From: Negaprion brevirostris
Lineage: Eukaryota
Direction: 5' to 3'
Length of the DNA stretch: 64,000 nucleotides
Assembly: GCA_030324005.1 (NCBI GenBank)
Contig: JARDVH010000025.1
Coordinates: 120,095,670 to 120,159,669, forward strand
In this document: positions 6,914 to 18,666 of the stretch, piece after piece
Position numbering within the stretch: the stretch's first letter is position 1
Layout: every line of letters begins with the position of its first letter
Notes under the pieces: model-generated
Told to the model about the DNA's origin: nothing
The model's input: the letters and a program-made list of their open reading frames with translations, nothing else
Databases searched by the model: none
Position numbers and translations under genes: made by a program

Positions 6914-7006
6914 ACTTTACACAAACAGAAGAAACTGCATTGGACTTTGAAAACTCTTCGTGGGATAATGACACTTGTTCTGTCACACCACCCTGTAATT
7001 ACACAG
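6914..7006 (+). CDS. Stalk exon of plus-strand receptor
   Basis: atcacag acceptor, ACAG|GTAC donor; 93 nt, phase 1-1, open: DFTQTEETALDFENSSWDNDTCSVTPPCNYT with three N-glycosylation sequons; frame-compatible with flanking exons. Confidence 0.7.
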
Positions 7007-8064: not shown

Positions 8065-8177
8065 AGGCATGTTACATGGAGCCCCTGATTCGGATGTCGC
8101 TTAGTGGCGTGTTTGTTCTACTTTCTCTGATATTCATTGGTGAATATCTGATCAATGTAGGAAATAAATCAATTTAA
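8065..8177 (+). CDS. Terminal exon: transmembrane helix with Arg plus short cytoplasmic tail
   Basis: Strong acceptor tttttcccctatgttttcccacag; phase 1 gives EACYMEPLIRMSLSGVFVLLSLIFIGEYLINVGNKSI-TAA(8175-8177). Confidence 0.8.
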
Positions 8178-8656
8178 AATACCAGGCGTGAATATTGATT
8201 TATTTAATTTTACATTTTTCTCTTTCTTTTTTGCTGTCTCGTATACCTATATACACGCAACCTTTTGCATGTATATGTTCCGTGAAACAGCTACCTAATT
8301 ACATTATGTATCTTATTTCATATGCATGCTATACATGGTGAAATTTAAGTCACGAAGGGTTATTGACGGATAAAGTTCATTGAGGAATTCAGGATCATTG
8401 CTGCGTCATTCACAGTAGAACATATGTACCGACAGCCCCAACTTTCACTGCATTCCAGCAGAATATAACTACGTGACAACGACAGTTGCTGGGAACAACT
8501 TGTGTTGGATCTCATGCAATTGTCTCGGACTCAAAATAGTAGGAGCTTGTGTGGGGCAAAGGTTTTGATGCAGGGATATTTAAACGCGCAGACAGGTTTA
8601 GTGTTCTCCTAAAATGTATTTTCTGTGCATCGGTAATTGATTAAATGTATTTTGAT

Positions 8657-8662
8657 AATAAA
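8657..8662 (+). promoter_or_regulatory. Candidate polyadenylation signal of plus-strand gene
   Basis: AATAAA about 480 nt after the stop, before the next CR1 insertion; motif only. Confidence 0.3.
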
Positions 8663-8869
8663 AGTCACATTTTACCAACAATATGAACAGAGAAATGAGG
8701 AACATTAATAGGGTGTTCATCCTCTGGACCATTCTCCACCACTAAGTTCAACGTGTCTCATCTGAATTTTGGCTCATCTCCACGTTCTAATATTTCACAT
8801 TCTTTGACATTGAAGATAATAATCACATATCCTTGTACTTTCTGCAGTTGGACGAAACGGATTGAGTCA

Positions 8870-9480
8870 AATCTATCATGGATCTGAATGGTGGCAGCAC
8901 AAATGGAGAAGATTGTGAAGAAAGCCTCTGGTTTGTTCGCCTTTATAGGAAGGGGTATAGAGTATAAGAGCTGAAGTCTAATGTTGCAGTTGATTAGGCC
9001 GCATTTAGAGTACTGCGTCCAATTCTGGTCGCCTTATCACCGGAAGGACGTGGAGACTCTGGAGAAAGTGCAGAGGAGGTTTACCAGGATGTTGCCTGGT
9101 ATGGAGGAAAGATTGAGCAAATTGGAGCTGTTTTCCCTTGAAAGACGGCGACTGAGGGAGGATCTAATAGAGGTATATACGATTATGAAGGGNNNNNNNN
9201 NNNNNNNNNNNNNNNNNNNNNNNNNNNNNNNNNNNNNNNNNNNNNNNNNNNNNNNNNNNNNNNNNNNNNNNNNNNNNNNNNNNNNNNNNNNNAAGATGTG
9301 CTATTAGACAGATTGGAGGTAATAAATTGTCCCTAAATTAGTTTTCCCTCAATGTGGAATGCCACAAACAAAAGATAAGGGTCATGGGTGGAGGGAGGAC
9401 TGGTAACGTTAAAATGGCGGCGCGGGCTCGTTGGGCCGAAGGGCCTGTTTCCCGGGCTGTTTTTGTTCTTTGTTCTTTGA
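8870..9480 (+). mobile_element. CR1 LINE 3' fragment (young)
   Basis: [46 protein letters not shown]; tail (tgttctt)n. Confidence 0.9.
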
Positions 9481-10490
9481 ATAAATTGCGGATGATTACT
9501 CTGTTAGAAATCATTTAACTGCAATTCACAAAACTCCAGAAAGAATGTGTGCCTTTGATAGGTTTATATTGCACCACTTAATTATGGAAATATATTTAAT
9601 TGTGTGAGTTTTCCGTGAAGCACTATGAATGACCTCGCAAAAATTAATGATATGAGCACAAATTAGCTGAAAATCGAAATATAACAATCAAAACACAATT
9701 ACAGATGAAATCAGTGGTAGTCATGTAACAGCATCGGAACACCATGCTCATGAAATAAATATTAAGTTGCATAAACATAGGGATGCGATCTCATATGAAC
9801 ACGTAAAGTACTCGCCTACAAAATGGATTGATTGAAGCAATGACATACATGTGGGGAAGGCGAATGCTTAAAGAGATGTATATATGTAAATGTCAAAGAT
9901 ATATACGTAGTGGACTGTGGATTTAAGTAAAGTTTGAGTTTCTCAGCAAAAAAAAATGTTGATCATGAGAATCATTTTCAACATTCATAAGTTTCCTATC
10001 GAAACAGTCCGTAAGTTCATTGACTAGCGATTATCATCAAGAAACGGGACAGGGTAACTGACATTTGAATAGGCATCATAGAGAAGTGGTATCAAGTTTC
10101 TTTTGAATGCGAACTGTCTGATTTAATATTAAAAATGAACAGCGGCCCTTAAATGTGCATTGGTCAATTAGACGCATCAGGTTCAGATCATTCAATAAAG
10201 AACGTTGCTAGAGAAAACTGCTGCAAGGTATGATGCTGGGAATATCATGCAAGCATACAACGTTGTCGTTGGAACATACTGAGGAATCAGGCCAACTGAA
10301 CATTTGGCAAATCCATTACCATTATGGCCTTTCACTCAGTATCATCCCCAAGAACCATGATTTACAGTGCGAGAAATAAATTGCATATTTTGCCTTGAAT
10401 TCATGCATTATGGAGACTTAAGAAGTGCAATTATGAGAGGCATTAAACACGTTGGGTGTATGAGAGATTGTGAAGATGAAAAAGAGATAA

Positions 10491-10493
<3 letters not shown>

Positions 10494-10523
<30 letters not shown>
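10494..10523. repeat. (GA)n microsatellite
   Basis: Direct reading. Confidence 0.9.
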
Positions 10524-10525
<2 letters not shown>

Positions 10526-10784
10526 AAATCCTAATGAACTACTTCGGATGAAGAATGGTAGCTGGATGCAATAGAAGAGCACAGGAGAGGGATAGAGTGG
10601 CAGTTTGCACGAAACAGAATCATTTTTTTCTTCGTAACAAAGCCCATTCCTAAGTTTTGATTACTTAAGCCGCATAATGCCCCTGCACTGGCTACATTTA
10701 TCCATTAGCTTTACGGTTTTGTGTTTTTTTTTGGGGGGGAGGGTTGTTGGGAGTGGGGGGGGGGGTGGAGGGTGCGGGGGGCAG

Positions 10785-11058
10785 GGGAAGTGTACATGTT
10801 ACAGAGAAGAAGGTGCTGGAAGTCCTAAAGCAAATCAAGGTAGATAAATCCCCAGGATCTGATGAAGTGTATTCCAGGACGTTGTGCGGGCCTAGGGTGG
10901 AAATTATGCGTCCCCTAGCCGAGATATTTGAAACATCTAGAGTCACGAGTGAGTTGACTGAAGATTGGAGAGTGGCAAATGTTCTACGTTTATTAAAAAA
11001 AGGCTGCAAGGTAAAGCCTGGGAACCACAGGCCAGTGAGCCACACATCTGTGGTGGAT
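10785..11058 (+). mobile_element. CR1 ORF2 fragment
   Basis: IKVDKSPGSDEVYSRTL..EDWRVANV..KKG..PGNHRPVS. Confidence 0.9.
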
Positions 11059-11829
11059 NNNNNNNNNNNNNNNNNNNNNNNNNNNNNNNNNNNNNNNNNN
11101 NNNNNNNNNNNNNNNNNNNNNNNNNNNNNNNNNNNNNNNNNNNNNNNNNNNNNNNNNNNNNNNNNNNNNNNNNNNNNNNNNNNNNNNNNNNNNNNNNNNN
11201 NNNNNNNNNNNNNNNNNNNNNNNNNNNNNNNNNNNNNNNNNNNNNNNNNNNNNNNNNNNNNNNNNNNNNNNNNNNNNNNNNNNNNNNNNNNNNNNNNNNN
11301 NNNNNNNNNNNNNNNNNNNNNNNNNNNNNNNNNNNNNNNNNNNNNNNNNNNNNNNNNNNNNNNNNNNNNNNNNNNNNNNNNNNNNNNNNNNNNNNNNNNN
11401 NNNNNNNNNNNNNNNNNNNNNNNNNNNNNNNNNNNNNNNNNNNNNNNNNNNNNNNNNNNNNNNNNNNNNNNNNNNNNNNNNNNNNNNNNNNNNNNNNNNN
11501 NNNNNNNNNNNNNNNNNNNNNNNNNNNNNNNNNNNNNNNNNNNNNNNNNNNNNNNNNNNNNNNNNNNNNNNNNNNNNNNNNNNNNNNNNNNNNNNNNNNN
11601 NNNNNNNNNNNNNNNNNNNNNNNNNNNNNNNNNNNNNNNNNNNNNNNNNNNNNNNNNNNNNNNNNNNNNNNNNNNNNNNNNNNNNNNNNNNNNNNNNNNN
11701 NNNNNNNNNNNNNNNNNNNNNNNNNNNNNNNNNNNNNNNNNNNNNNNNNNNNNNNNNNNNNNNNNNNNNNNNNNNNNNNNNNNNNNNNNNNNNNNAATTT
11801 GGAAGTATGGTATGTTTTTTTCGGGAAGC

Positions 11830-12495
11830 ATACTTTCATATAAGGATGATGTGATGTTCAAGAATGTGCACACTAATGGAAAAAGATTGGGCAGAGTCAA
11901 AATGGATCTTTGTCAGGGAAATCTCTTTCAATGTATTTGTTGACAATTTTGAGAACTCTATTGGGATGAAGCTTGTGTCTGTGGTCGGAGGGGGTCAGGC
12001 TGTTAGTTCTGTATTTGCATTTTTCGAGGGATTTTGATAAGGCCTGCCAAATAAGATGAGAAGGTAAAAATAGACGGGATGTGATTGGTGAAAATGTGTT
12101 AGGATGCATGAAGAATTTGCTGTCAGACGGAGCAGAGGGAAGGAACGAGCACATAGCAGACTCTAACCAAAGTACTATTGCAAGTGCCAGTTACCTGCGC
12201 ATAGATCTTCGCAATCTCCATCAATTATGTGAATATGGCAACCAATTGTAACATATCCTGATAGGCTGAAGATACAAAACAGAGCAGCAACATAAGTTCT
12301 AAGGGGAATCTAAGCAGACTTCAAAAAGATTTGGACTAATTACGTGAACGCCCAAGGATTCGGCAGAGTAAATATCACATGAAGATCTGTAAAGTCATTC
12401 ATTTTGGCCGAGAAATAATGCAAAACTAGCATATTTCTAAAATGGCTGGAATTTCGGAAATTTGCATGTTTAAATGGACCTTGGCAGCCTTGTTT
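11830..12495 (+). mobile_element. Old CR1 RT fragment (5' part; resumes about 15640-15970 after a nested insertion)
   Basis: Decayed YLDFxKAFDKV / FADDTKL / QRDLG-like sequence that continues collinearly after 15640. Confidence 0.65.
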
Positions 12496-15400
12496 CTTTC
12501 CTTATTCATTCGGGGGACATGGACATCGCTGGTTGGTCAGCATTTATTGTCCAACACTGGCTGCTTTGAAAATTCGGTGGTGAGCTGCATTTTGAATCTC
12601 TGCATCCATTTTGTGTGGGTTGATCCACAATCCCTTTTGGGACGAAATTGCAGGATTTTGATCCAGTAAGTGCGAAGGGAAGTCAATCCTTTTCCAAGTC
12701 AGGATGGTGAATGTCTTGGACAGAAATTTGCAGGTCGTGGTGTTTCAATTTATCTGGTGCCTTTGCCCTTCTAGATGGAAGTGGTCGTGAGTTTGGAACG
12801 TGCTGTCTGAGGATCTTTGGTGAAATGCTGCAGTGCATCTTACAGATAGTAAACATTGCTGTTACTGAGTTCTGGGGTGGAGGGGTTGAATGTTTATAGA
12901 TGTGATGTCAAACAATCGGGCTGTTTTGTCCTGAATGGTGTCACGCTGCTTGAATGTTGTTGGAACTGCACCCATCTAGGCAAGTGGGGTGCATTCCACC
13001 ACACTCCTGACTTGTGCACTGTAGATGGTGGATAGCCTTTGGGGAGTCAGGAGTGTGCTAGTCGCCGCAGTACTCCTAGGCTGTAACCTGCTCTTGTAGC
13101 CACCGTGTTCATATCATGAGTCAAATTGAGATTCTGGTTAATTGTAACCACAAGGATGTTGACAGAGATGGATTACGCCATTTAATGTCAAGGGGAGGTT
13201 ATAAGAGTTCTCTTATTTGTGATGGTCATTGTCTGGCACCAATGTGGCGCACATGTTGCTTCCTACTTGTCAGCCCAAACCTGGATATTGTCCAGATTTT
13301 GTTGCATTTGAGCATGGGCTGCATCAGTATCTGAGGAATTGTGAAAGGTGCTGGAAATTGTGCAATCATCGGCGAACATCTCGCTTCTGACCTTATGAAG
13401 GAGGACATGTTATTGATGAAACAGCTGAAGATTATTGGACCTAGGACATTACCCACAATTTTTCCAACATTGATATCCTAGAGTTGAGATGCCAACCTCA
13501 AAGATCCTCCAATGGACCAGCTACGACTCCAACCAGCAGATAATTTATCCCCTGGCTCCCATTGATTCCAGTTTTGCTGGGGCTCATTGATGCCACACTC
13601 AGTCGAATGCGGGCTGAATGACAAGAGCTGTCACCCTCGCTTCACCTCTGGAATTTCGCTCATTGATTGGACCAAGGCAGAAATGAGATCTGGAGCTTGG
13701 TGACCCCGGCAAAGAACAAACTGGGCGTTTTGAGCAGATTATTGGTTAACACGTTCTGCTTGACAGCGCTGTGGATGACCCCTTCCATCACTGTGCTGAT
13801 GATCGAGAGTAGAATGCTTGAGCGGGAAATGGGTTGGTTGGATTTGTCCTGCTGTTTCTGTACATAACATACCTGACCAATTTTCTGCAGTATTTGCAAC
13901 ACGCTAGCATGTTAACTTTACTGGAAGTGCTTGGCTAGGGGAGCGGCAATTTCTGGAGATTAAGTCTTCAGTACTATGTTATCAGTGCCCGTTGTTTTTG
14001 TNNNNNNNNNNTGTAGTACACAGTGCCTCCAACTTGTTTATTGATATCATGTGCACTGAATCGATTTGGCTGGAGACTGGCATCTCAGATGCTGGGGACT
14101 TGATGCAAAAACTTCAGCCTTATCTATTGCACTAATGGGCTGGTCTCTTCCATCAATGAGGATGGGGATATTTGTGGAGCCTCCTTCTCCAGTGAGTTGT
14201 TTAATTGTCCACCAGCATTCTCGACTGGATGTGTGAGAATCTTTTGACCACTTCACTCTATCAAGTCTATTGCTTGCCCCTTTTGCCATTTGGCATGCGA
14301 GTAGTCTTGTCTGGAAGCTTCACCAGGTTGATACCTCATTTTTATGTGTTCCTGGTTCTGCTCCTGGCATGCCCTCCTGCACTCTCCATTGAACAAATGT
14401 TGATACCTGGCTTGATGTCATTGGTTGAGTCGGGATATGTTGGGCCATGGGATTGTAGATTGTGCTGGAGTACAGATCTGTTGTTGTTGATGGCCCATCG
14501 CGCCTCATGGATGCCTAGCCTTCAGTTGCTAGGTTGGTTCGATGTCTATCCCATTTAGTATGGTGATTGTGCCAAACAACATGATGGAGGTTATTCTCAA
14601 AGTGAAGGTGAGACTTTGTCTCCACAAGGACTGTGCGGCGGTCACTCTTGCCCATACTGTAATGTACAAATGCACCTGCAGCATGCGATTTGGTAACGAT
14701 GATGTCGAGTATGTCTTTTTTTTTCTTGTTCATTCCTTCACCAAATGCTACAAACCCAGTCTAGCAGTTATATCCTGTATGACCCGACCAATTCGATCAG
14801 TAGTTCTGCTTCCGAGCCACTTCTGGTGGTGGACATCGAAATCCCCCTCCCTGAGTGGATTTTGCGTCCTTGCTACCCTCAGTGCTTCGTCCAAATGTTG
14901 ATCAACATGGTGGAATATTGATTCATCAGCCCCCGCAGAAGCATGGTATGTGGTAATCAGTAAGAGGTCTTGTTCCCCATGGTTAACCAGAAGCCACGGG
15001 ATTCACGAAGCCCGGAGTCCATTCCGACTGTATACCACTGTGGCCCCACCTCGGTGTGACAGGGCATATCCACGTGTAGAAATAGTGGTGTCCGGTCTGT
15101 TATCTGTAAGGTATGATTCCATGAGTTTGATTATGTCAGGATATTGCTTTACCATTCTGTGACTCAGCTCTCCCAATTTTGGCACTCGCTCCCAAGTGTT
15201 AGTAAGGAGGACTTTGCAGGGCCGAAAGTGCTGTTTGTTTTGCTGTTCTCTTTTTCGGTGCATGGGTCGACAGCAAGTGGTCTGTCCAGATTCCTTTCTT
15301 TCTTCATTCTGTGGAGGGATTGTACCAACTGAGTGGCTTGCTAGGCCATTTCAGAGGGCAAGCAAGAGCCAAGCATATTGTTGTGGCTCTGAAGTCACAA

Positions 15401-15638
15401 GCAGGCCAGGCCAGCTAAGGACGACAGACTTTTGTCCCTAAAGGAGAATAGTGAATCAGTTTTTTTTTTCAGACAATTAACAATGATTTCATGTCAGTAG
15501 ACTCTTAATTCGAAATATTTTTATTGAATTCATATTCCACCAACAGTTGTGGTGGGATTCAAAACCAAGTGCCCAGAACATTTTCTAGGCTTCTGGATTA
15601 TTAGTCGAGCAATAATGCCACGAGGCCATCGCCTCCCC
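12496..15638 (-). mobile_element. Near full-length decayed CR1/L2-group LINE (APE + RT) with tRNA-like 5' head
   Basis: PDIIKLMESYL, RGGATVVY, ILDIIVT, GKSDRRTVLVETK (APE); ILLSIISTVMEGV, GNVLGPIIFSCFINN (RT); A/B-box-like motifs at 15618-15628 and 15555-15566. Confidence 0.8.
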
Positions 15639-16906
15639 AAGTGTGTTCACTTGGCACAAAATTTTTGCATGCAGTTGCAACAATTAATACAGAAGGAAAA
15701 TACTATGTCAGAGACCTGGTGAGATGATTTGAACAAACAATCATTGTTGTAGTTGTATTGTAGCTTGGGCAGACGTAATATGCAGAATTGTGCACAACTC
15801 TAGTCTCTACATCTTAAGAAGAGTGTACTTGCAATAGAGGGAATGCAGCGAACGTTGGCCAATTAATCGCTGGGATGGTGACATTTTCATATGGGAAGAA
15901 CTTGTGGACTCCAAGGTTGCACTGTCTGGAATTTCGGATAATGAGTGAGATGTGACACAACATGCACGCACAGAGTTCANNNNNNNNNNNNNNNNNNNNN
16001 NNNNNNNNNNNNNNNNNNNNNNNNNNNNNNNNNNNNNNNNNNNNNNNNNNNNNNNNNNNNNNNNNNNNNNNNNNNNNNNAGTTCACACTGGGGCTAGCAG
16101 GGTGAAGAGTGATACGATGTTATCCTTTGAACAAACAGTCAAAATCATTTGGGCTATAACTCTCTGCCTGATGTCGAATTAGAGAGGTTCAACGAAGTAT
16201 GGTGGGAAATCAATCTCGAAAAACTCAAGGTAAGTGTTTGTATGCAATAGCCTAGAAGCAATGAAACAATTTGGGCAATAGTGTTGCGCTGTCAGCCATT
16301 CCAACGCATGAATAACATTTCTAACTTTGGATTATTCCGCCTGATTCAGGGCAATTGTTGCTAAAAATATAGGACAGACAAAACATTTTCCAGCTTAATG
16401 ATTTAAAAAAATACTCTTTTGAAAACCTAGATCATTCGATGCACTGGTACGCCATAATTTCCCATCCACAATGATCACCAATCCATAATATTCCCCACTC
16501 CTGATGGGATTTCCTCCACTCTCCGTCCATTGAGGTTACGCCGTTCCAAATCTAAGGGCTCGGCTCTCATATCTGACTTGACTACCATACTCCACAACTG
16601 ATTTCACTATCCAAAGCACTCTATCTGACTCCGGAGCATGACCAACAGCAGCTCCACTCCACTGTTTGCTATACCGCTGTGCTCAATACGATGAGATAAT
16701 AACTTTACAGTTCAAGTCCCGCTTAGTAAATGAACGCCAAATAATTTGCTTATCACACCTTTTGTTTTGCAAAGGGGTTTCGCTTCAATATCTTGCCCAT
16801 GGATTACCATTCTCATCCTTTGAGGAAAGAACTGAAAAATAGCAATTGCGATTTGATACTAATTTTGTGCCCTTCATTAAATTATTGCCGTAAACATTTT
16901 TTTCAC

Positions 16907-17223
16907 CTGAACAATTGACAGACGCCGCCTCATGATGCCTGCAGTTGTGATCTCCCAAAGCTTTTTTGTTCCGCAGTGCAGTAAGTTGTCCTCGTTTCCG
17001 GTACAATTTACATCATCCAGCCAGAAGGAACCAGGTGAGTCTCCAAAATAAGCGTCTGTCAGAGCTCTGTTGGCGGACCCAAAGCCCAACTGCGTGCACA
17101 CGACGTCGGCATCATGTTTGTCCCAATCGTCATCGCACGCTGCCCCCCACGTGTTGTTATAATATAATTCCACTCTTCTTGAAGCAGAGTTAAAATCATT
17201 TGTCAATCGTAATGTGGCGTCAG
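16907..17223 (-). pseudogene. SRCR exon with +2 frameshift near its 3' end
   Basis: cttttag/GTGAAA bounds give 317 nt; the frame shifts in an A6 run after LLHCGT; ALGDHNCRHHEAASVNCS lies in another frame. Confidence 0.75.
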
Positions 17224-17765
17224 CTAAAAGAAAGAACATGGTGGGTGGGGGGACAACACCAATTTCACTTATTGAATCTATTATCCTTTGTGAGAAAACC
17301 TCGGCAATCAAAGAGATTTGATTTTCCCTATATTGGCCTGAGCTTATTTTTATTATTGCTTTACTTTATTCTATTCACAGACCTTGTTCCTCGCGTTATG
17401 TAACGTCAGTTATTCACGTTACGTAAGAAGTATCTCCTATTGAGTCGAATTCTAAGAGATGCAAATGTCATTTGAAAGCTATTGTTTTCTTTGCAGTGTC
17501 GGACACGAAATTTCACTTGAACAAAAACATAAGTTCGCGGCTATTTTGTGCTGCAGTGTTTTTTTTTCGGAAATATTCATTTTGCTTGGGATTCGTGCTC
17601 TGGAATGTTCCTTAAAAATATTAATTGTTTTGACATGTCCGCCAATCGCACGCCAGAAATCATTATTAGGCTATCCCTTCAGTCGCGAACTTTGTATCTT
17701 ATTTCCATCATATTTCTGTTTGGATATAATACATGCATTCTGTAGGTAAAACGAACGTTTGATAC

Positions 17766-18080
17766 ATAAGCAAATTACAGACGCTGCTTCGCCCGCATTG
17801 CAGTCATGCTCTCTAACGGAGTTTGAACGACGCTGGAATAAATTCCACTCGATCCCTTTGGCATTTAACATCATCCAACCAGAAATTTCCAGACGCAGCT
17901 CCAAAATGAGCATTGCTGAGAGCTGATTTAGCGCGCCCGTAGCCCAACTGTCGACAGACAAATCTCGCAACTTCCATATTCCAGTCGTCATCACAGACCG
18001 CACCCCAGCTGTCATTAAATGTAGTTCCACACCTCCGGGGCAAGGATTGGATCCATCAATCAAGCGCACTGGGATGTCAA
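17766..18080 (-). pseudogene. Degenerate SRCR exon with compensating -1/+1 frameshifts
   Basis: cctttag acceptor, weak T|GTATC donor; SRCR motifs split between two frames ([14 protein letters not shown] / [19 protein letters not shown] / KGIEWNL..EAASVIC); Cys4->Tyr, Cys6->Arg. Confidence 0.8.
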
Positions 18081-18666
18081 CTAAAGGAATGAAGCGTGGA
18101 AATCGAATCATTTGTATCCTGATTTGTTTACTCTTCGAATTACAGCGTGATTATTATTATAATAATAACAATAATAATGGAAGATGAACGACACTAAAAA
18201 CTAATTCCCCATTCACTGATAATCTACTTCCCGGCGAAATAAAGAGGTAATCATGAAAAAAAAAGACGTCTCCGTTGACGTCATCCTTTTTTTTGATTCT
18301 GGAATAATTCTTCCGGATGGCGGGTGACAATATTAATCCTTGTATTCAGGAAATAAATGAGGGACGGTTAAAACAGGGAATTAAAACGGTTAACCCGCCA
18401 GCAGTAATAATGAAAATTGAAGTGTCCATTATAAAATATTTGGTAACAAAATAGAGGAGAAACATTTTCTTTGTTCCCAAGTACGGTGTATATCTCCCAT
18501 TGGCGCTTACAAAAAAACCCTGAAAATGTGTACAGAGTAATTTGTACTTACGATGGACAGAACATAATTAAATGTGTAACTGAATAGATAGACCGCTAAG
18601 CAGTTGTTGTTTCTAGTGAAAAATAATTATGATGTGGAGATGCCGGAGTTGGACTGAAGTAAACAC

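Follow-up and report, generated by a model that had tools for sequence, protein, structure and literature searches.

The window analysed here comprises 64,000 nucleotides of the Negaprion brevirostris genome (assembly GCA_030324005.1, contig JARDVH010000025.1, positions 120,095,670 to 120,159,669 of the forward strand), and its plus strand carries the 3′ end of a gene that probably encodes an activating receptor with an Arg near the start of its transmembrane (TM) segment. Three exons of this gene, all on the plus strand, were identified. The first (1558–1863, 306 nt) encodes a membrane-proximal C2-type immunoglobulin (Ig) domain with Cys26 and Cys77 and no Trp, assigned by Pfam to Ig_C19orf38 (E 8e-5) as a bare pass, with a score of 23.3 against a cut-off of 23.2. 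The second (6914–7006, 93 nt) encodes a stalk that carries three N-glycan sequons and has two Cys at a distance of six residues. Both are open, bounded by AG..GT, and in phase 1 at either end. The third (8065–8177) is the phase-1 terminal exon, begins directly 3′ of a pyrimidine-rich AG acceptor, and holds the TM helix, the tail, and the stop together. Its TM motif is E-P-L-I-R-M, with Pro (8082–8084) three residues before the Arg, at the position of the Asn in the NxxR (Asn-x-x-Arg) motif, which is absent. The Arg (8091–8093) lies near the outer TM end, and a Glu-Tyr pair (8142–8147; Glu 8142–8144, Tyr 8145–8147, at Arg+17 and +18) marks the cytoplasmic end in the same register as in a horn shark orthologue. 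Nine further residues precede the stop codon TAA (8175–8177), and the tail contains neither an ITIM (the inhibitory type of immunoreceptor tyrosine-based motif) nor an ITAM (the activating type). Candidate polyadenylation signals lie about 470 nt past the stop (8640–8662, with ATTAAA at 8640 and AATAAA at 8657); another AATAAA at 8163–8168 on the same strand, within the last codons before the stop, is probably a chance occurrence but could affect 3′ end formation. The first-pass annotation, made from the letters of the sequence, had joined these three exons into one model and read the last as ending about nine residues after Glu-Tyr in a short tail without ITIM or ITAM. Frame, coordinates, and splice acceptor confirm that reading of the terminal exon, and the model as a whole is supported by the open, canonical, phase-1 exons and their in-order match to the horn shark protein. 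No upstream Ig or signal exon was found in positions 1–1557; the earlier exons probably lie to the left of the window, and the complete gene probably has three Ig domains, as its horn shark orthologue does. Positions 600–648 and 766–814, on either side of a gap (649–748) and around a CA repeat, are identical, which probably reflects an assembly overlap.

Several searches single out the terminal exon. A scan of both strands of the window for an acceptor followed by a hydrophobic phase-1 frame gave three candidates, among which the 8065 exon had the top pyrimidine tract (0.85 vs. 0.70). The pattern aliphatic-aliphatic-Arg-aliphatic ahead of a hydrophobic run occurs twice in the six frames of the window, and the other case sits after a stop. 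When a profile of six related TM segments, from which the window exon was left out and in which the horn shark orthologue was kept, was run against the window peptides, the 8065 exon scored 26.5 bits (E 5e-7) and the runner-up of 2788 peptides 12.0. Ungapped TM scores reached 62 against horn shark protein P0002 and 45 against sevengill protein P0032, values attained by none of 2000 shuffles, and the score against a further relative, P0117, exceeded 1999 of 2000. An artefact is ruled out by the matching of the orthologue across all three exons. The tail is 25 residues shorter than that of P0002 (27 vs. 52 residues after the Arg), a point against the activating-receptor explanation, and candidate internal donors occur at 8140 (phase 1) and 8157, each matching six of nine consensus positions. 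These features, along with frameshifted SRCR exons nearby and assembly gaps downstream, would fit a copy that is decaying through a premature stop, or one spliced alternatively from 8140 or 8157 to another cytoplasmic exon. We consider this explanation very unlikely: each of the three exons has an open frame and canonical splice sites, and no tail-like exon appeared among 1052 candidate comparisons in 8178–16800. Because the residues after 8140 are conserved in P0002 (7 of 12 identical), read-through past that donor is favoured. In addition, very short tails are normal for the NxxR/TM1 class of TM segments, for which a negative charge at the TM end is also a listed feature (PMC2413239, PMC6557307).

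With the window Ig exon as query, a full-library phmmer search yielded 159 proteins with E no higher than 0.001, and the analysis covered the best 150 of them. The closest named relatives are the RefSeq protein P0002 of Heterodontus francisci, automatically named ‘venom metalloproteinase inhibitor DM43-like’, and P0032 of Heptranchias perlo, named ‘DMBT1-like isoform X2’, in agreement with the first-pass view that the gene is that of a cartilaginous fish. P0002, composed of three Ig domains, a stalk, and one TM helix, matches the three window exons in order, with 51% identity over 100 aa, 64% over 28 aa (the stalk exon, E 7e-10), and 50% over 36 aa. In a tree built from 282 domains of the window and 56 usable hits, among them no named mammalian, bird, or amphibian sequence, the third Ig domain of P0002 is sister to the window domain (support 0.997). 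P0002 also retains the Arg, Glu (+17), and Tyr of the window TM and, in the stalk, the Cys spacing and N-glycan sequons, which bears out the earlier claims of a conserved Arg and an acidic-aromatic TM end. P0002 is thus the probable orthologue of the window gene. The two-Cys arrangement of the stalk, shared by both sharks, could form a disulfide loop or a dimerisation site. DM43 itself is an A1BG-related protein. P0032 joins an SRCR-Ig ectodomain to the same type of Arg TM. Both proteins have longer tails than the window gene (the Arg being followed by 52 and 62 residues) and Ala at the Asn position, and both are database predictions with automatic names rather than described receptors. A word-index search with the window Ig exon found no match among 60 candidates; the same search with P0032 found itself and one bird SRCR protein, and with P0002 only itself.

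The TM segment was compared with those of six hits chosen for an Arg at the TM start, and counts in this set (n = 7 with the window) therefore do not amount to a conservation rate. The Arg stands in register in P0002, P0032, and P0117 and lies within the predicted helix 387–418 of the P0002 model. After it, a run free of charged and amide residues extends over 16–20 residues (median 17) and ends in Glu in six of the seven proteins, whereas in the 29 other TMs of the hit set the median run is 25 residues and 24 end in Lys or Arg (relatedness uncorrected). With a run so short between Arg and Glu, a normal membrane span must take in one or the other, and the best 19-residue hydrophobic windows include the Arg. 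No Lys or Arg occurs in the eight residues past the run in the window or P0002, and ITIM and ITAM are absent from all six hits. A Tyr lies 5–7 residues upstream of the Arg in all seven; the stalk exon ends in x-Y-T, with no DYT in register. The LRC-style TM motif that the first-pass annotation had seen, LRC standing for leukocyte receptor complex, holds for the conserved Arg and fails for the Asn: the residue at −3 is Pro in the window and Ala, Ala, Thr, Ile, Ile, and Thr in the relatives. A plain NxxR member is ruled out by this absence, and the window TM is better described as a variant of the NxxR/TM1 class, having its Arg, acidic end, and short tail on one exon. True NxxR TMs occur in 5 of the best 150 hits to the window Ig exon (P0023, P0035, P0043, P0063, and P0095), which were left out of the Arg-TM set; these hits link the Ig-domain type of the window to NxxR receptors. 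The same annotation had taken this TM type as a mark of the LRC, which is not borne out, since the class also occurs outside it (PMC2413239, PMC6557307, PMC4536121); because NxxR TMs are found in the FCRL and SLAM families of Xenopus, the TM alone cannot place the gene in the LRC.

From these comparisons, the gene probably encodes, by a modest preference over the other explanations taken together, an activating receptor that would couple to a zeta/FcR-gamma-type dimer through the Arg. The 3′ end of the gene would specify a type I receptor with LRC/FCRL-type C2 Ig domains, a glycosylated two-Cys stalk, an Asn-less Arg TM, and no signalling motif of its own. Its Ig domains would bind a ligand, the TM Arg, as the proposed contact, would be held against the two Asp residues of the adaptor dimer, and the ITAM-bearing dimer of the zeta/FcR-gamma family would relay the signal, with Syk/ZAP70 acting downstream. 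Expression of the gene, burial of the Arg in the membrane, binding to an adaptor, the identity of that adaptor, and an activating output are inferences. In mammalian CD89, the two Asp residues of the FcR-gamma dimer are both bound by an Arg close to the top of the TM, and a like assembly with zeta or gamma is assumed for NKp46; a correctly placed basic residue can suffice for assembly, the role of the Gln or Asn above the Arg being untested (PMC13107469). The TM1 genes of Xenopus encode TM, tail, and stop on one exon, and their receptors associate with FcR-gamma (PMC2413239). In the bamboo shark, cd247 and zap70 are T-cell markers (PMC11372145).

Several observations weigh against this mechanism. 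The Asn of NxxR, which PMC6557307 treats as defining (it writes ‘invariable Asp at -2’, read here as the Asn), is absent in all seven proteins compared, and in the ungapped shuffle test three of the Arg-TM relatives, P0053, P0087, and P0081, show no significant similarity to the window TM. The top-scoring 21-residue hydrophobic windows begin 1–3 residues after the Arg, which could thus sit at the interface, and the Pro at −3 may break the helix before it. The 2014 survey in PMC4016189 found no FcR-gamma in sharks, and in the supplements of the bamboo shark study (PMC11372145) the fcer1g rows seen, 16 of 16, stand in bony-fish sheets. Under the alternative that the hydrophobic windows and the Pro suggest, the Arg is a mere boundary residue at the outer face of the membrane, and the protein an adhesion, scavenger, or decoy receptor without adaptor signalling; the abundance of SRCR domains among its relatives, suggestive of pattern binding, would suit such a role, as would the failure to confirm a shark FcR-gamma in the literature examined. 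We regard this as quite unlikely. The Arg-to-Glu run of 16–17 residues is far shorter than the neutral TMs of the family, the Arg stands at the outer side and is matched by no inner basic cluster in either the window or P0002, and an ITIM-bearing counterpart exists among the relatives. With the best 19-residue windows including the Arg and the best 21-residue ones starting after it, its membrane burial is likely, though not certain.

That counterpart belongs to a pair of proteins that are sisters in the tree (support 0.994): P0117, with an Arg TM and a 17-aa tail, and P0115, with a neutral TM and two ITIMs, whose ectodomains are 54% identical over 166 aa. Related proteins therefore exist in both Arg-TM and ITIM forms. 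As far as sequence goes, P0117 and P0115 conform to the pattern of paired receptors, and neither is the direct partner of the window gene. ITIMs were found in only 2 of the 29 non-Arg TMs of the hit set, and P0032 is the sole carrier of the Arg motif among the 27 TM-bearing SRCR+Ig hits, most of the others having long neutral TMs. A third signalling type may occur within the same family, since P0005, P0052, P0121, P0124, P0130, P0134, and P0075 combine neutral TMs with acidic tails that bear Tyr-x-Asn motifs, often repeated.

The affinity of the ectodomain was examined in sequence and in structure. A profile of six window Ig exons ranked PIR-B, LILRA6, and LILRB3 first, then FCRL5, and then LILRB1 and NKp46, and 34 of the 42 matches of P0002 to PDB sequences were LRC proteins (seven non-LRC, one unlabelled), LRC entries being over-represented in PDB. 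phmmer searches of PDB gave only chance matches for the Ig exon alone and none for the TM exon. With an AlphaFold model of the window Ig domain (predicted local distance difference test, pLDDT, 90.6), LRC chains accounted for 48 of the 50 rows in the alignment filtered by Foldseek and for 8 of the top 9 matches of a non-redundant structural search. Among the top matches were CHIR-AB1 (Z 13.6, root-mean-square deviation (rmsd) 2.0, 93 residues aligned), PECAM-1 (13.4), PIR-B (12.8), and OSCAR (12.6), while the Fc-receptor family reached 10.1 (Fc-gamma-RI) and 9.4 (FCRL5, about 4 Z units under the best LRC match). The window domain is about 15–24% identical to LRC structures. In the Atlas, P0002 lies nearest to the KIR-like and TARM1 clusters (0.97). 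A three-domain model of P0002 (predicted template modelling score, pTM, 0.47) also retrieved PIR-B, LILR, and KIR first by E-value, yet at an rmsd of 9–18 Å, because of which its domain arrangement is uninformative. Nearest to LRC receptors in most of these sequence and structure searches, the ectodomain gives the LRC-type placement a support that was absent from the first-pass annotation.

The same searches contain results that run counter to an LRC origin. FCRL5 came first for a wider profile (154 vs. 150 bits) and for P0117, PECAM-1 tied with the top LRC match, the HIDE1 and Allergin-1 clusters lie at 0.96 in the Atlas, within 0.01 of the LRC ones, and the best Pfam match is the HIDE1 domain Ig_C19orf38. 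The gene could accordingly encode an activating Arg-TM receptor of a separate fish family, SRCR-Ig/HIDE1-like or FCRL-like, whose TM likeness to the LRC arose by convergence or exon shuffling, in which case it would say nothing on the timing of LRC origin. The missing Asn and the absence of any LRC marker seen in the window would agree with this, as would the 48 SRCR+Ig hybrids among the best 150 hits; we know of no such hybrid architecture in the LRC. This explanation appears unlikely, though not far-fetched. Single-domain structure puts the LRC above the Fc-receptor family (CHIR-AB1 over Fc-gamma-RI and FCRL5, with the Z scores given above), the many domains of FCRL5 inflate its whole-chain scores, and the probable orthologue P0002 is Ig-only. 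Moreover, several TM features are shared together: the Arg near the start, the upstream aromatic residue, the acidic end, and the tail on the same exon. The three Ig domains of P0002 speak against a plain HIDE1 protein, with its single Ig_C19orf38 domain. The window gene probably belongs to the LRC/FCRL radiation; sequence and model comparisons place its family within the LRC/FCRL/HIDE1 neighbourhood and nearest to the LRC, of which it may or may not be a strict member.

The other gene or genes seen in the window, on the minus strand (27518–63907), form a large intact array in which 13 SRCR exons and 6 Ig exons are arranged in SRCR-Ig-SRCR repeats and all 16 gap-free exons checked are open, bounded by AG..GT, and in phase 1. 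Its Ig exons are 24–31% identical to the 1558 exon and fall in a clade with P0019, P0061, and P0032 (support 0.998). The shared Ig homology, together with the TM of P0032, indicates that the two window neighbours are paralogues and that the Arg TM occurs on Ig-only and SRCR-Ig ectodomains alike. The joining of SRCR and LRC-type Ig domains to an Arg TM, as in P0032, is unusual in itself. No TM or terminal exon for the array was found in the window; it resembles P0019 and the sevengill P0032 and may be secreted or run into an assembly gap. Between the two genes, on the minus strand, lie two frameshifted SRCR exons, each split over two frames (16896–18099; 16896–17236 and 17761–18099), about 9 kb past the last intact array exon and probably a decayed gene end or a remnant. 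The opposite strand and separate clade rule out the 8065 exon as a fragment of the SRCR gene. The first-pass annotation had suggested a check of synteny with LRC markers, and none (TTYH1, LENG8, RPS9, CNOT3, PRPF31, and others) was recognised by eye among the 171 open reading frames of at least 80 aa in this 64-kb window, the related SRCR-Ig array being the sole neighbouring gene seen. Open reading frame fragments at 8758–9307, 10678–11058, and 39979–40383 are presumably remnants of CR1-type long interspersed nuclear element reverse transcriptase, which they resemble.

For cartilaginous fish, the open full-text literature, outside which lie most subscription journals and with them much of the work on fish immunity, yielded no description of C2 receptors that are LRC-like or bear an Arg TM; none was met in the excerpts of PMC6795676 and PMC3031540, and a term search of PMC8455134 gave no match. 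NCBI already lists P0002 and P0032 under names assigned automatically, and one of these names points to a likeness to the LRC; according to PMC6557307, the automatic names of such proteins mislead. [quoted passage not shown] The window result conflicts with that statement on C2-only homologues. The locus may tentatively be taken to reveal that cartilaginous fish possess an undescribed family of several genes for paired receptors from the LRC lineage, some Ig-only and others SRCR-fused, whose activating members would carry an Asn-less FcR-gamma-coupling TM, an interpretation that we hold with somewhat less than even confidence. If it is true, the LRC lineage and the wiring of a TM Arg to an ITAM dimer would be older than the divergence of bony from cartilaginous fish, the paired-receptor system would reach as far back as the ancestor of jawed vertebrates, and CD3-zeta might serve as the adaptor, should sharks lack FcR-gamma. 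The mechanism itself is already known, so that the surprise would lie in date and lineage. The window gene and its relatives are concrete candidates for the missing natural killer and myeloid receptors of sharks, and their Asn-less TM offers a natural test of the importance of the Asn in NxxR, which is untested according to PMC13107469.

Among known systems, paired Ig families of fish with activating and inhibitory members include the skate MDIRs and the teleost NITR, NILT, and LITR (PMC3031540, PMC2413239). Identity with the MDIRs is ruled out, as these have CD300/TREM-like V domains (PMC3031540) and the window domain is C2 and LRC-like. HIDE1 (C19orf38) and the fish SRCR-Ig ‘DMBT1-like’ proteins share the Ig_C19orf38-type Pfam domain with it, but in the latter, unlike in the window gene, most TMs are long and neutral, and several of these proteins have acidic tails with Tyr-x-Asn motifs. 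The XFL and SLAM-like TM1/NxxR receptors of Xenopus resemble it in carrying Arg TM, tail, and stop on one exon; they are paired with neutral-TM forms bearing tyrosine motifs, and FcR-gamma association is reported for XFL2 and XFL1.7 (PMC2413239). They differ in their FCRL or SLAM ectodomains and in keeping the Asn, whereas the window domain fits LRC structures better. The corresponding LRC motifs are NLIRM in LILRA and FCAR, NLLRM in NCR1, NLVRI in GP6, and NLVRL in OSCAR, that of FCAR (CD89) being the one confirmed in the literature. From the activating LRC receptors (LILRA, PIR-A, FCAR/CD89, NCR1/NKp46, GPVI, OSCAR, TARM1, and IGSF1) the window gene departs in having Pro for Asn, a TM exon that lacks DYT, a stalk exon with a Cys pair, and SRCR-Ig paralogues. 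It shares with them C2 Ig domains, theirs being the closest both by sequence and by fold, an L-I-R stretch whose Arg stands close to the beginning of the TM, as in the QNLIR of CD89 (PMC13107469), an acidic TM end, and a short, motif-free tail.
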